Source of the DNA: Octopus vulgaris
Taxonomy: Eukaryota
DNA: 64,000 nucleotides
Assembly: GCA_951406725.2 (NCBI GenBank)
Contig: OX597816.1
Span: 142,414,001 to 142,478,000, forward strand
Direction: 5' to 3'
Positions 21,040 through 37,402 of the stretch are shown piece after piece. The position numbers and the translations under genes were made by a program. Under the pieces are notes generated by a model, which saw only the letters and a list, made by a program, of their open reading frames with translations, made no database searches and was not told where the DNA came from. How positions within the stretch are numbered: the stretch's first letter is position 1; each line of letters starts with the position of its first letter.

Positions 21040-23610
21040 ATATTTCTTCTAAACATCAGAAGGCTGTTGCACATCAATTGTAAAACAAAAATCTCATTCT
21101 TGAGAGACCTTGCTGCATACAATCAAGCTCAATGCATAGCACTTGTAGAAATGCATCTCAGCCCCGATATAGGAGATGCAGAAATACACATACCCTAATA
21201 TGTTGTCATACACTCAGATAGAAAAGAAAGGAGCCATGGTGGAGTTGTTATGTACATCCAAGAGGACCTCACACCCCAGGTCCTGCTGTCGTATTCAAAT
21301 TCAGTGTGTGACGCTCAAATTGTACACATAAGACAACTTAATATTGTCATATGTACTACATACTGCTCACCGGATGCTCTAAATCCTACAGGTAAGTCTG
21401 AAGACTGCCTAGCAAAGATAGAAGTTTTCACCAAACTGGAACAACACATCAGTGTATTCCTTTTGGGTGACTTTAACTTCCCCAATGTGGGATAGCCGGT
21501 GGAGGCCAGATGCTCCCAGGAATGACACACCACCAGCAAGCACAGGCAGAGTCCCTGCTCCACCTTGCCAATACTTCTTTCATGGAACAAATTGTGCTGC
21601 AACCATAATATACTGGATATCTGCTTTACAAACAATATGGATATTATCCATAATGTTAAATTGACACAATGCTAGTCTCGGATCACAGCATAATAGAGCT
21701 GTCTATGTATGGACCAAAAGTCCCTGCATATGTACAGCCTATATGAAGCCCCCAAAATCTCTTCAAGCTGAATTTTCATAAAGCAAACTGGAAGTTGATT
21801 GAGAAAGAGATCCTCAAACAGGATTGGCCTAAATGTCTCTCCACACGAAACATTGACATGAAATACAAACATTTCATGTCCATAATGCAAGCCATATGTG
21901 ACAAATTTCTCCCAGAGCACAGGGCCAACACACACAAAAACAGGATCCTTAGCAAAAGGAAGATTCTTATGAGATAACAGACAAAGATTGTGAACCACCT
22001 GAGCAAGCATCCCAAAAGTGGTAAGAAGTGACACCTGGAGAGAGTGCTGTTGGATATTGAGAAAAATCTGCATCAGTCTCATGAAAAAGTGAAAGCAGAT
22101 AAGGAAGCATGGGTTATAGAAAATATCAAGCTAAACCCAAAAACTTTCTTTAATTTTGCCTCAATACACCACAAGATAGGACCCCTCTTGAAAAAAGATG
22201 ACTCCCTCACAGGAAACCCAATGAGGATAAGTGAAATACTGAACAAACAGTTTCAAAGTGTGTTCACTACACCTCTAGAACACAGGCAAGTGAACAAACC
22301 AGCAGAATTCTTTGCCTTTTCACCTGTAACCAAAGAGGCAAAAATTAATTACATCAATATTAAAGAAGATGTAACAATGGCTATAGATGGGGTTGATGCA
22401 AACTCAGCTGCTGGCCCAAATGGATTCCCAACAATCCTTCTCAAATCGTGCAAACGAGCCCTTGCACAATCACTCCAGCTTCTTTTTCAGAGCTTTCTTG
22501 TGAATGGTAAGCTCCCAGACAAACTGAAGGAAGGAATAATATGCCCTACCCTTAAAGGAGGAAGCAAAGCAGATCCTAAAAATTATAGGCTTATCTCTGA
22601 CCTCACACATCAGCAAAATCATGGAACGAATAGTCTGCAAGAAACTAATCACATTCCTTGAAGAAAGTGACTTGCTGACCCAGCATGGATTTCGACTAGG
22701 TAGAAGCTCTAACACAGCTCTTGCTACATTATGACTGGGTATTAAAACAATTGTTAAATGACTCAAGTGTGAATGTGATATGTCTCAACTTTGCAAAAGC
22801 CTTTGATAAAATCGACCATGGTATGTGTCACAAACTGCATGATCTTGGCATAGTTGGAAAACTTGGAGAGTGGCTACATGACTTTCTAAATGATAGACAT
22901 CAGACAGTGGTGGCAAATGGAGCCACCTCAAAGAAAACAAATAGCAAGTGGTGTTCCACAGGACACTGTCTTAGGGCCCTCTCAGACATGCCCTCAGCTG
23001 CTCAGATAGGCATCCTTGCTAGCTATGCAGATGACACAAAAGTCTGTCATACTATACAAAATCCTGGAAATGTTGCGGATCTGCAATGGGAGTTGAACGC
23101 AATATATAGGTGGACTGAGGACAACAACATGCAGTTTAATGCAGACAGGATACACTGGCATAGGAGGGATTGCAATCCCTGAATCAAAATCAGTGCATGA
23201 CCTGGGCATTGACGTGAGCAATGATGTATCTTTCCAATTGTATATTACCAATTTGCTAATAAAATGTAGACAGCTAGCTGGATGGATCCTCTGAACTTTA
23301 AAAACAAGAAAAAAGAAGACGATGGTCCTTTGGAGGCATACATCCTCAGCTACTTGGACTACTGCTCACAACTATGACCACCACACAAGATAAACTTAAT
23401 GACAAGGCCCAAAGCAGCCCAGCGAGGCTACACAGAACATTGTCTCTGGGAAAGACAGAGAGTTAGGGCTCTTCTCTCTAGAGCAAGGGTGGGAAAGATA
23501 TGCAGTAATGTACATCTGGAAAATCCTTGAGGGCCTCATGTCAAACTCAGGCATTGAGAGTTGTACCGGTAGCAGAATAGGGCGTCACTGCACAGTGCTA
23601 GGGGTCCCGG
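21040..23610 (+). mobile_element. Decayed CR1-like LINE ORF2 (APE endonuclease + RT)
   Basis: APE: FLLNIR..,CIALVEMHL, SDRKERSHGGV, LLGDFNFP. RT: SAAGPNG, NYR.IS, QHGFR.GRS, FAKAFDKIDH, GVPQD.VLGP, YADDTK, ERY..MYIWKILEGL. Frameshifts and stops throughout. Confidence 0.92.
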
Positions 23611-33284: not shown

Positions 33285-33915
33285 GACTGAGACCTTTGGA
33301 GCTATGTTGTGCTTGAGAATTCCTAGTAAGCCTAGGGAGACCGTAACTGTGGCCTATGCCAGTGCAGCATAACCAGCCCATTTAAGAGTACACTTCAATC
33401 ATTGAGCAATAAGCTGTGCTTGCAAAGACCTGTTGAGGCAAGTGAAATTGTTGTTGTAGCTGATGACAGTACTGCCTGATTGGCACCTGGTGACATGTAA
33501 AAAGCACCATTTGAGCGTGGTTGATGCCAGTGCCAGTGGTATGTTAAAAGCACCATTCAATCGTGATCATTGCCAGTGCCACCTGATGGCTCACGTGCCA
33601 GTGGCACATAAAAAGCACCATTTGAGTGTGGTCGATGCCAGTGCTGGTTGATTGGTCCCATGCGGGTGGCATGTAAAAAGTACCATTCAAGTGTGGTTGA
33701 TGCCAGTACCACCTGACTGGCCCTTGTGCTGGTGGCACGTAAAATGCACCCACTACACTCTCGGAGTGGTTGGCGTTAGGAAGGACATCCAGCTATAGAA
33801 ACTTTGCCAGATTGGATTGGAGCATGGTGCAGCCTTCTGGCTTGCCAGCTCTCAGTCAAACTATCCAACCCATGCCAGCATGGAAAGTGGACGTTAAACA
33901 ACAATGATGATGATG
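33285..33915 (+). mobile_element. Non-autonomous element with RTE-type tail and internal ~60-bp tandem repeats
   Basis: About 5 diverged units of GGTGGCACGTAAAAAGCACCATT.GAG.GTGG..GATGCCAGTG, then GGCGTTAGGAAGGACATCCAGC and CCAACCCATGCCAGCATGGAAA..GGACGTTAAA(GAT)n. Confidence 0.75.
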
Positions 33916-35049: not shown

Positions 35050-35745
35050 TTTGTCTCAGGTTTAGATTGTAGTCATGCACATTGGGGCACCATCTTGAAG
35101 GGTTTTGTCAAATAAATCAACCCCAGTACTTATTTTTAAAGCCTGGTGCTTATTTTATCAGTTCCTTTTTGCTGAACTGCTAACTTAAGGGGATGTGAAC
35201 AAACCAATACCAGTTGTCAAGCAGTGATGATAACAAATACAAAGACATACACACATTGATATACATATAATAAATAATTATAGCAACAAAAGTGGTATTA
35301 ATTCCAAAAGTTAATATTTATCCCCACTTAAAAGTAGATGTTTTAGAACACATAGAGTTACCATGAGAGAACTTTTCATATTTGCTTTTGGTGCATATAA
35401 ACATTCTTGTTTACATTGCTAGTGGGAGATAAATCACCCACCATTGCCACTGCAAAGACTACTGGATCATATGATTTGTGCTACCATTGACAGGGCCAGG
35501 GAAGGCTGAAATCAAGAGTACTCATATGCACCAAAAGCCAATATGAGAGATTCACAACATCCACTTTTAAGTGGTGGTAAATTCAAATATGTAATGACAG
35601 GCTTTTTTCAGTTTCCATCTATCACATTCATTCACAAGGTTTTTGTTGGCCCAAATTATAGATGACACTTGCCCAAGGTGCCATACAGTGGGACTGAACC
35701 CAGAACCATATGATTTGGAAGCAAACTTCTTCCCACACAGCCATA
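35050..35745 (-). mobile_element. CORE-SINE family A interrupted by a palindromic insertion
   Basis: Tail at 35050-35250, head and core at 35595-35745, unrelated inverted-repeat element between them. Confidence 0.75.
35313..35583. mobile_element. Palindromic MITE-like element
   Basis: CCACTTAAAAGTAGATGTT pairs with AACATCCACTTTTAAGTGG. TCATATTTGCTTTTGGTGCATAT pairs with ATATGCACCAAAAGCCAATATGA. Confidence 0.65.
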
Positions 35746-35997
35746 TCTATAGCATAGTTAAGTGTGAGCCCTTACTATCTATAAACTACCAAAATCTTTA
35801 AATTTGTGTTTATTCCAAAGTTGTGCTTGTTTAGTATATGTTGAAACTAAAACAATTGCATCATAGTAGAATCTTTTTATCCTTTTAAAACACATGTACT
35901 ATTATAGTCACTTCTCTTTAATTTATAATATTCATATATGCATTCATTATTAAGAGTATATTAAGTAATAATAGATACATTTGAAAAAACTTGAATA

Positions 35998-36105
35998 ATA
36001 CTAGCTATGGCGGTACATATTCAAAAATTGGAATGATACAGAGAAGATTAGCAAGACCCCTGCACAAGCATGACACACAAATACGTGAAGCATTCCATAT
36101 TTTTT
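35998..36105 (+). pseudogene. U6: U6 snRNA retropseudogene (full length)
   Basis: ACATATTCAAAAATTGGAATGATACAGAGAAGATTAGCAAGACCCCTGCACAAGCATGACACACAAATACGTGAAGCATTCCATATTTTT aligns to U6 end to end. ACAGAGA box and AGC triad retained. Several changes look like CpG decay. Confidence 0.95.
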
Positions 36106-36160
36106 ATAAACACGGTGCTCCAGCATGATCACAGTCAAATGACTGAAACAAGTGTAAGAG
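36106..36160 (+). mobile_element. 3' tail of SINE family A (or its partner LINE) fused to U6
   Basis: GGTGCTCCAGCATGATCACAGTCAAATGACTGAAACAAGTGTAAGAG matches the tail at 17439-17484. Confidence 0.9.
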
Positions 36161-37402
36161 AATAATAATAAAACATCGCGTTTTAAATGTTAATATTTAA
36201 TGTAACTCTACCATAATGTAAATATGTTTATTATTATCATGGGCACTGTGCTAAAGCATAGTGTCCATGAACTAAAATGAATCAAAAAGATTATTATTAA
36301 ACTTCAAATCATAATAGACTTGCTGTAGTTATTTCTCAAAGTATAAAACTTTTAAGTACTTTCACCTAAGAGTCAGTCCCCTGTTCAACACAGTTTGGTC
36401 ATGACTGGAAGATTACCCAAATGCTGTTCCCTAGATCTAAATGTAAATCTTTAAACTATTTAATACCTGTGTATCCACATGTTGCAGATGAAATCTAATA
36501 TTAACTCTCAGATTCTCATTTCTTCAGGAAACATGGAATATATACCTGCAATGTACTAAGATATGTTGAATAGTTTGCAATGTATGTGGTACATTTTAAT
36601 GGCTACTTCCATTAGATACCCAATAATTTCTGTAATAAATAGGATTTTATATCTTCTATATATTTCAAACTTAACAATATAAATGCTATATACTGATATC
36701 ACTATTAGCAATAAACACACACACACATAATGAAAAATGTTCAACTCTGACCTTCAACATTGTTAAAGAAATATTGATATTTTCAATGTGGTTCAGCAGT
36801 TCTAAATTAGATTACTTTAGAAATGTTTGGTGTTCTTTGAAGCCTTCTTCTATAATCAGCTGCTACTTGTTATAGGTTTCCATCCACAAACCAGTCTTCA
36901 TCATATCTTCTTATTTTCTGCTTTATTCTTCTCTAATGTGAATCAGCTAATAAATTTTTTTTTAATCTTGCCCACACACTTATATGCGCTACATATTCAT
37001 ATATAAATAAATATCACATATGCATCTTAGTACATATATGTATGTGTATATTGATCTAACTGGAAGATTGCCCAAATGTTGTTGACTAGTTAAGAAGTTT
37101 GCTTCACAATGATAAAGTCTTGGGTTTGATCCAATTTTGTGACATCTTGGACAGATCTCTTTTGCTATACTCTAGGATCCACCCAAGCCATTTCAGTGAT
37201 ATTAGGTTGTCAGAAAGTGTAAGACTGTTTTTGTCATTCAAAGGACTGGCTTTGTCACATTCTAGCTTTAGCCCTCAACTCCTGATGAAGTAGCACATTA
37301 TAAACCAATTTTTGCCTTTTATTGCAGCTGCTTGCCAAAACTTAGGCCTCTGCTAATGACTTCCCTGTCTACTCTTCAACATTATCTATCAATTTTTTCC
37401 TC

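Follow-up and report, generated by a model that had tools for sequence, protein, structure and literature searches.

The window, by which we mean the whole 64-kb stretch of DNA analyzed here, harbors at 35998–36170 a full-length U6 snRNA copy joined to the 3′ end of a SINE, and this locus reads as a U6 chimeric retrogene. The genome holds more than 100 separate fusions of this type, with U6, U2, unfinished tRNAs and 5S as heads, and we consider it probable that template jumping during target-primed insertion made them, the window locus included. Distinctive here are a near-fixed boundary on the partner, a wide range of sense-strand heads, a (probably) invertebrate host and joins at natural 5′ ends. 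New SINEs are believed to originate from small RNAs that gain a LINE tail by template switching, and failed intermediates of this process are rarely seen; for U6 chimeras, ligation and switching are debated. In this genome, at least 21 tRNA–tail fusions, a 5S–tail fusion and a SINE head found on two tails all have the boundary where the dominant SINE acquired its own tail, and heads and acceptors are mostly poor RtcB substrates, which makes this set a clean test case for switching outside of mammals.

The chimeric locus in the window

SINE-1, SINE-2 and SINE-3 and tails A to D are working labels of the present analysis. The features of the locus are as follows.

35993..36000 (+): likely 5′ copy of the target-site duplication, 8 nt (direct repeat); its last 2 nt overlap U6 positions 2–3
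35998..36104 (+): U6 snRNA pseudogene, full-length and processed, from gene variant V2 (Rfam RF00026, 93 bits)
36100..36106 (+): junction of six T (the U6 oligo-U end) and one A foreign to both partners (sequence reading)
36107..36160 (+): tail A, i.e., the SINE-2 3′ module and the start of its terminal repeat (sequence comparison)
36111–36130 (+): hairpin 1 of tail A
36132–36145 (+): hairpin 2 of tail A
36160..36167 (+): likely 3′ copy of the target-site duplication (direct repeat), the "(AAT)n" of the earlier note

The earlier note described a complete U6 with its oligo-U end, and the match to RF00026 at 35998–36104 (+) confirms this, as it covers model positions 1–105 of 105 with 93 bits against a cut-off of 44 and is the sole Rfam RNA found in the 64-kb window. 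The oligo-T 3′ end of U6 is intact and lies directly upstream of a retroelement 3′ end in the same orientation: the six T (36100–36105) are followed by the extra A (36106) and then by TAAA and the tail (36107–36160), which begins 4 nt above hairpin 1. Also as described earlier, this 54-nt tail is that of a local SINE; six further SINE copies in the window have a matching 3′ end (E 3e-16 to 3e-3), and the majority sequence of 30 genomic copies departs from it at 7 of 54 positions. A U6 chimeric retrogene that entered by one insertion with a partner unlike L1, as the earlier note proposed, is supported, and the partner ends in short tandem repeats.

The window U6 differs from variant V2 (L030) at 11 positions and from V1 (L152) at 15, and is among the most diverged copies, with 9 differences over positions 22–105 where 46 of 55 scored loci have ≤5. 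The 300 nt upstream of it have no match to the promoter region of L030 or L152, and the upstream box and TATA common to these two gene-like loci are absent. Because of the 11 differences from V2 and the missing box and TATA, the window U6 is a processed, promoterless pseudogene, and the locus by itself is a dead one. L030 belongs, with L023, to a tandem array of V2 U6 genes (G000:C1, 139.42–139.43 Mb) and L152 is a V1 gene; all three have the same upstream box at about −77 and a TATA at about −29. The remaining variant, V3, is found only in retrocopies among the loci read.

The 8-nt word GAATAATA is present twice, at 35993–36000 and 36160–36167, around U6 and tail together. We regard it as a likely rather than a proven target-site duplication, because 4% of 205 mismatched control pairings also contain a direct match of ≥8 nt; a candidate for the duplication that the earlier note proposed to look for thus surrounds both parts, at a length that controls reach at this rate. 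The SINE-2 family terminates in (TAAAAGAG)n-type repeats, and for this reason the AATAATAAT that follows the window tail is probably part of a target-site duplication and not the terminal repeat of the family, contrary to the earlier reading of an AAT run as the SINE tail repeat. Among 58 tail chimeras, 17 lie in microsatellites and were set aside, and 17% of the 41 scored show duplications of ≥7 nt versus 6% of 205 controls. In three chimeras with 5′-truncated heads (L148, L240 and L241), head and tail together are flanked on either side by (TA)n. Long duplications flank two copies in which a U6 head precedes a full SINE (17 nt in L127 and 12 nt in L133, by eye), whereas bare-tail chimeras have short ones or none; from these lengths more than one LINE machinery may be involved.

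The surroundings of the locus contain an older minus-strand fragment of a SINE-2 head (35587–35749) and a small inverted repeat upstream (35316–35546), both unrelated to the chimera. Window positions 33530–33750 hold 3.4 copies of a 65-nt repeat that is part of another SINE-like family, which also partners U6 at internal positions.

Recurrence and independence of the fusions

An exact pattern of U6 end, gap and tail has 43 matches in the 2.8-Gb genome and 0 in a reversed control, so the U6–tail junction is not a chance arrangement; the recurrence across the genome that the earlier note had raised is borne out. The exact U6 3′-end pattern has 183 matches genome-wide, and misses decayed copies, the window's own included, as well as rows with a C at one downstream position. 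The first 100 of the 183 matches listed (contigs 1–10) were classed by eye, with the sequence of 95 read, and group as follows.

Join at the boundary of tails A to D: 32/100 rows
Join at the SINE-2 5′ end: 23/100 rows
Join at the SINE-1 5′ end: 8/100 rows
Join at the SINE-3 start: 1/100 rows
Join at base 1 of another U6: 2/100 rows
Join inside SINEs: 10/100 rows
Join at the last bases of SINE-1 (probable): 3/100 rows
Join inside another LINE: 1/100 rows
Partner not identified: 1/100 rows
Lone full U6 copy in a (TA)n microsatellite: 1/100 rows
U6 genes: 6/100 rows
Fold-back-type U6: 12/100 rows

U6 3′ ends joined to a repeat or to another U6 thus account for 80 of the first 100 listed (of 183). 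Most of these chimeric rows (66 of 80) join at an end-like point, i.e., a SINE or U6 5′ end or a tail boundary, and 14 of 80 join away from an end. The 32 tail-boundary rows correspond to 26 events once a six-copy segmental duplication and one tandem pair are allowed for. The SINE 5′ ends were set independently from stand-alone copies (n = 57 for SINE-2 and n = 23 for SINE-1), which start at the same positions as the U6 joins.

We compared 66 tail loci, a selected and not random set of best matches and pattern matches from which 8 locus identifiers of the segmental duplication were dropped. These harbor 56 distinct linkers, with T-runs 3–9 long, and only two pairs (L012/L028 and L258/L260) share both linker and hairpin-2 sequence. 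Among all loci read, V1, V2 and V3 are each found with tails A, B, C and D, i.e., in all 12 combinations. Since every combination of variant and tail occurs and 56 linkers are found in 66 loci, the U6–tail chimeras are shown to have arisen as independent events; six identical copies on contig C1 share flanks and are a segmental duplication. The earlier note held that identical junctions would imply an amplified family and variable ones independent chimeras, and the outcome divides along the junction itself: the partner side is nearly fixed and shared, while variants, tails and linkers vary, an outcome foreseen by neither alternative.

The fold-back-type loci (L164, L177, L168, L200, L183, L160, L187 and L188; G000 contigs 3–10) consist of an inverted U6 followed by a U6 3′ part, with arms that share ≈80–200 nt of one AT-rich 3′ flank and, in three loci, are 56 nt apart. 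Dispersed loci of this type share flanks (77% for L177/L188 and 85% for L160/L176), which hints at a separate U6-plus-flank element or at recurrent palindromic duplication.

The tail module, its boundary and other captured heads

Tail A is present in 60,800 exact copies in the genome; of 30 sampled, 29 are found within SINE-2 and one behind another SINE head. Tail B has 3,091 exact copies and lies directly 3′ of an RT-coding ORF at L123.

L123:730–2262 (−): RT-coding ORF of the LINE upstream of the tail (RVT_1, E 1.7e-31)

An RT-coding ORF directly upstream is shown for tails B and C, and related tails end four further LINE families (L203, L116, L062 and L104). No LINE ending in tail A was found among the 30 sampled tail-A copies and 30 more from a filtered set, nor was a LINE found ending in tail D. 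The search for the parent LINE suggested by the earlier note thus succeeds for related tails (B and C) and not for tail A itself, and we infer the enzyme for the window locus from the related LINEs. We tentatively take the tail-source LINEs to be of the CR1 group from their ORF2 motifs and repeat-type tail; Pfam and Atlas assign the LINE RT only to RVT_1, and the exact LINE protein is absent from the protein collection searched. The window carries, at 22458–23609 (+), a decayed, frame-broken fragment of a LINE ORF2 that is piecewise 34–70% identical to the L123 LINE. A 10-nt word at the end of the L123 ORF (stop-codon region) recurs identically close to the 3′ end of U6; no junction was seen that uses it, and the identity is probably a coincidence.

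The tail module (≈55 nt; 55–60) folds as two hairpins. In a pairing test on 14 related rows, in which the structure was picked from the same sequences, 94.6% of cells in the alignment are paired and 0 of 500 shuffles reach the score; in hairpin 2, two pairs change on both sides between families. Above this fold the partner begins within very few bases: 59 of 60 scored U6 junctions keep ≤4 parent bases above the hairpin and 46 of 60 keep 3 or 4, the scoring being confined to tails with known parent sequence and thus omitting six tail-D loci. Extra bases are found at 43 of 60 junctions and none at 17 of 60, and these "extra" bases may in part be unknown parent variants, read-through or later decay. 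T-runs are 4–6 long in 48 of 66 U6 loci. A partner start that is nearly fixed while U6 variant, tail family and linker all vary points to a mechanistic hotspot.

The same boundary is found where tail B stands by itself. Among 30 unselected tail-B copies, 18 break 2–5 nt above hairpin 1 (L089 being counted by a 3-nt exact match), one breaks at ≈15 nt and 11 run ≥70 nt into the LINE, consistent with the 28 of 86 tail-B copies that keep 13 exact upstream bases (by eye). Five of the 18 boundary copies are headed, two by U6 and one each by an intron-bearing pre-tRNA, a tRNA-like piece and a SINE. Bare tails comprise ≈60% of tail-B copies versus ≈1% of tail-A copies (for the latter, 425 filtered matches, of which 30 were sampled and roughly half of these judged bare by eye), a contrast that is not accounted for by a hairpin-set stall alone.

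A self-cleaving ribozyme at the tail boundary was considered and rejected: neither the window nor any of 11 loci has such an Rfam family above the gathering threshold, and the LINE 3′ region yields only two weak, unrelated Rfam matches and no ribozyme family. The hammerhead and HDV ribozyme cores do not fit the boundary by eye. At three loci (L171, L049 and L246), the 5′ junction carries short tandem repeats of the first 10–30 nt of the SINE, tail or tRNA, as repeated re-priming would leave.

The boundary also accepts heads other than U6. A pattern of tRNA loop, gap and tail has 21 matches (control, 0), with heads of Leu, Ser, His, Asn and Arg types, assigned with ARAGORN together with inspection by eye; at its relaxed setting, ARAGORN miscalls some of them. 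All 21 are in sense orientation; 20 carry short trailers and no added CCA, about four retain intron sequence, five are 5′-truncated and in 16 a run of ≥4 T precedes the tail. Loci L231 to L251 are pre-tRNA–tail fusions with intact tRNA heads. One 5S copy lies on tail A; a partly guessed 5S-end pattern returned 0 matches and is no measure of 5S numbers. U2 was searched as a control in which no chimera was expected, and 10 of 11 distinct pattern matches are chimeras (control, 0), six on a tail and four at a SINE 5′ end (two of the four being a duplicated pair). Since U2 is joined in 10 of 11 matches, and at the same points, the notion that capture is confined to oligo-U pol III RNAs was rejected. 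The 30 best U2 family matches read as genes, and one of 18 lower matches (on C6) is a chimera. An Rfam scan of 40 loci (34 bare or near-bare tails and six tRNA-headed) revealed one further tRNA and no other RNA head.

Composite loci are also present: L126 is U6-U6-tail, and L125 is tRNA-Lys, U6 and then U6 1–41. In L172, the partner of U6 is the 3′ portion of a further LINE family, whose different tail also ends the triple chimera L126. One tRNA-derived SINE head is found on tail B and on tail A with the same boundary (L089, L110 and L208), which suggests independent tail capture or a swap.

Probable template jumping, its alternatives and known systems

In the mechanism that we favor, the LINE protein would bind the two-hairpin module as a handle and copying would start at an AT-rich target. 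The LINE reverse transcriptase would copy the module up to a stopping point, which may be the tail boundary or the natural 5′ end of SINE or U6 RNA; after adding zero to a few untemplated bases, it would take an abundant nuclear RNA as its next template, beginning at the free 3′ end. At the window locus, the enzyme likely stopped a few bases above hairpin 1 and jumped onto the 3′ end of U6, within a single insertion. For the tail boundary, a true RNA end and a stall of the enzyme are almost equally probable, with a slight lean to the former. The finding that one boundary carries U6, U2, pre-tRNA, 5S and SINE RNA heads supports template jumping. Against it count the T-runs of 4–6 in 48 of 66 loci and the 17 of 60 clean joins, as RtcB products would show, the 14 of 80 rows joined elsewhere than at an end, duplications at tail chimeras barely above control, the lack of a LINE found with tail A and the bare-tail share of ≈60% (B) versus ≈1% (A).

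Those same T-runs, clean joins and off-end rows would suit an order of events in which RNA ligation comes first, with RtcB joining U6, by its 2′,3′-cyclic phosphate, to a 5′-OH fragment released by cleavage immediately above the hairpin, before retrotransposition of the product. This route is demonstrated for U6/L1 in human cells in the relevant part of PMC6789731, where RtcB is described as requiring a cyclic-phosphate donor and a 5′-OH acceptor. U2, trailer-bearing pre-tRNA and 5S at the same junction points are not expected donors, however, nor are the first bases of a SINE or U6, which 34 of 80 rows join, expected acceptors. According to established end chemistry, pre-tRNA trailers and U2 end in 3′-OH, and the intact 5′ ends of pol III transcripts and of U6 carry no 5′-OH. 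Because U2 and pre-tRNA donors and intact SINE and U6 5′ ends are ill-suited to RtcB, we rank template jumping ahead of ligation as the most likely mechanism; the extra bases at 43 of 60 junctions and the lack of a ribozyme family match in the LINE 3′ region or window add to the case that ligation is an improbable source of these chimeras, although a minority of U6 cases, the window locus included, may have come about by it.

Two independent insertions, in which a bare tail landed later at the T-rich end of a U6 pseudogene or pol III gene, would be helped by the abundance of bare tails, by their preference for AT-rich sites and by target-site duplications that are generally weak. Yet 80 of 100 listed U6 ends are chimeric, against one lone full copy among the 100, which sits in a microsatellite; joins are also made to U2 ends, which are not T-rich; and a single direct repeat surrounds both parts in the window. 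Truncated heads share a single (TA)n tract with their tail, which supports a single insertion, and we hold separate insertions to be very improbable. The slimmest chance falls to the U6-headed SINE family, amplified from a master chimera, that the earlier note offered as the other reading. The 43 exact junction matches and the two pairs with common linker and hairpin-2 sequence would fit such a family, but the 56 linkers in 66 loci and three U6 variants on four tails in all 12 combinations do not, the window copy lacks a promoter and the six identical C1 copies share flanks as a segmental duplication does. The passages of PMC4494074 on this point describe the U6 promoter as external, so that a retrocopy would not readily become a master, and state that snRNA genes have no reported internal promoter; an amplified U6-headed SINE is largely refuted. 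Fusions made by the route favored here, template jumping, do not amplify: U6 and U2 are captured without their external promoter, and in most tRNA heads a T-run terminator remains before the tail.

Chimeras of U6 with non-L1 partners are not new, as platypus U6-L2 and U6-Mon-1 and lizard U6-L2, -RTEX and -AnolisSINE2 are already described in the section of PMC4476161 on chimeras. In these, as in the present set, U6 in sense orientation heads a short 3′ segment of a stringent non-L1 LINE, or of the SINE that belongs to it; the target-site duplications are short, those here being likely ones, and the chimeras are ascribed there to template switching. They differ in that almost all of their U6 heads are 5′-truncated whereas many here are near full length, in that this section describes no fixed partner boundary whereas ours is nearly fixed, and in their vertebrate hosts, the host here being probably an invertebrate; the same section suggests that switching might be limited to U6 and U6atac, whereas U2, pre-tRNA and 5S are also captured here. 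Mammalian U6/L1 chimeras, in the passages of PMC6789731 and PMC11838501 that concern them, share with ours a full-length U6 ending in 4–8 T, in the same sense and upstream of a retroelement 3′ end, and an origin in independent events. Their junctions are described as variable with no preferred site, while the boundary here is fixed within ≈4 nt; their L1 partner has a poly(A) tail and long duplications, while ours ends in short tandem repeats; and RtcB ligation is demonstrated for them, while extra junction bases are common here. By its partner tail and junction, the window locus appears not to be of this mammalian type. Human tRNA/L1 chimeras, as given in PMC11838501, are mostly antisense halves, in contrast to the sense precursors with trailers found here.

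The WEIRD-MGL/Mg-SINE chimeras of Magnaporthe, as characterized in the relevant part of PMC2104539, are also chimeras of a non-mammalian LINE, with preferred switch sites and double jumps (compare L126). There, a short sequence motif marks the 28 switch sites found in 33 elements, whereas we find one structural boundary per family that takes up nearly all joins, and hairpins are predicted upstream of their switch site, whereas ours lie in the part already copied. Crocodilian SINEUs likewise have an snRNA-derived 5′ part on a retroelement tail; the account in PMC4494074 treats them as amplified families with U1/U2 heads that are explicitly not sums of independent chimeras, whereas the present set is such a sum. 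The R2 reverse transcriptase jumps from the 5′ end of a template to the 3′ end of another RNA and adds bases, according to the pertinent passages of PMC8594491, which show this in vitro; the LINE here is of another group. In the portions bearing on this subject, PMC4758252, PMC5786205 and PMC10294476 propose template switching for SINE module exchange, or treat mollusc LINE content, and contain no such chimera set, and the annotation passages of PMC13282606 list "U" and "U-L1" SINE classes for octopus without analysis. Largely open-access main texts yielded no report of such chimeras from an invertebrate or cephalopod, and a prior description is possible. The host is putatively a cephalopod, judging by the earlier note and by the likeness of its SINEs.

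A further proposal, which we put forward tentatively and as more doubtful than not, is that the 55–60-nt tail is a free RNA, the protein-bound 3′ remnant of LINE mRNA decay, that is retrotransposed alone and enables jumps onto abundant nuclear RNAs. Decay from 5′ to 3′ would halt 3–4 nt above hairpin 1, and such a remnant would account for the 3–4-nt overhang and for ≈60% bare tails of a pol II LINE versus ≈1% of a pol III SINE. If true, this remnant makes up most LINE copies, and the genome is a dated archive of proto-SINEs in which the 60,800-copy SINE was born at the same boundary. A T-run before the tail would stop pol III, and its presence may decide the success of a SINE; four tRNA-headed loci that have no T-run of ≥4 before the tail (L235, L236, L237 and L249) are candidate SINE seeds.
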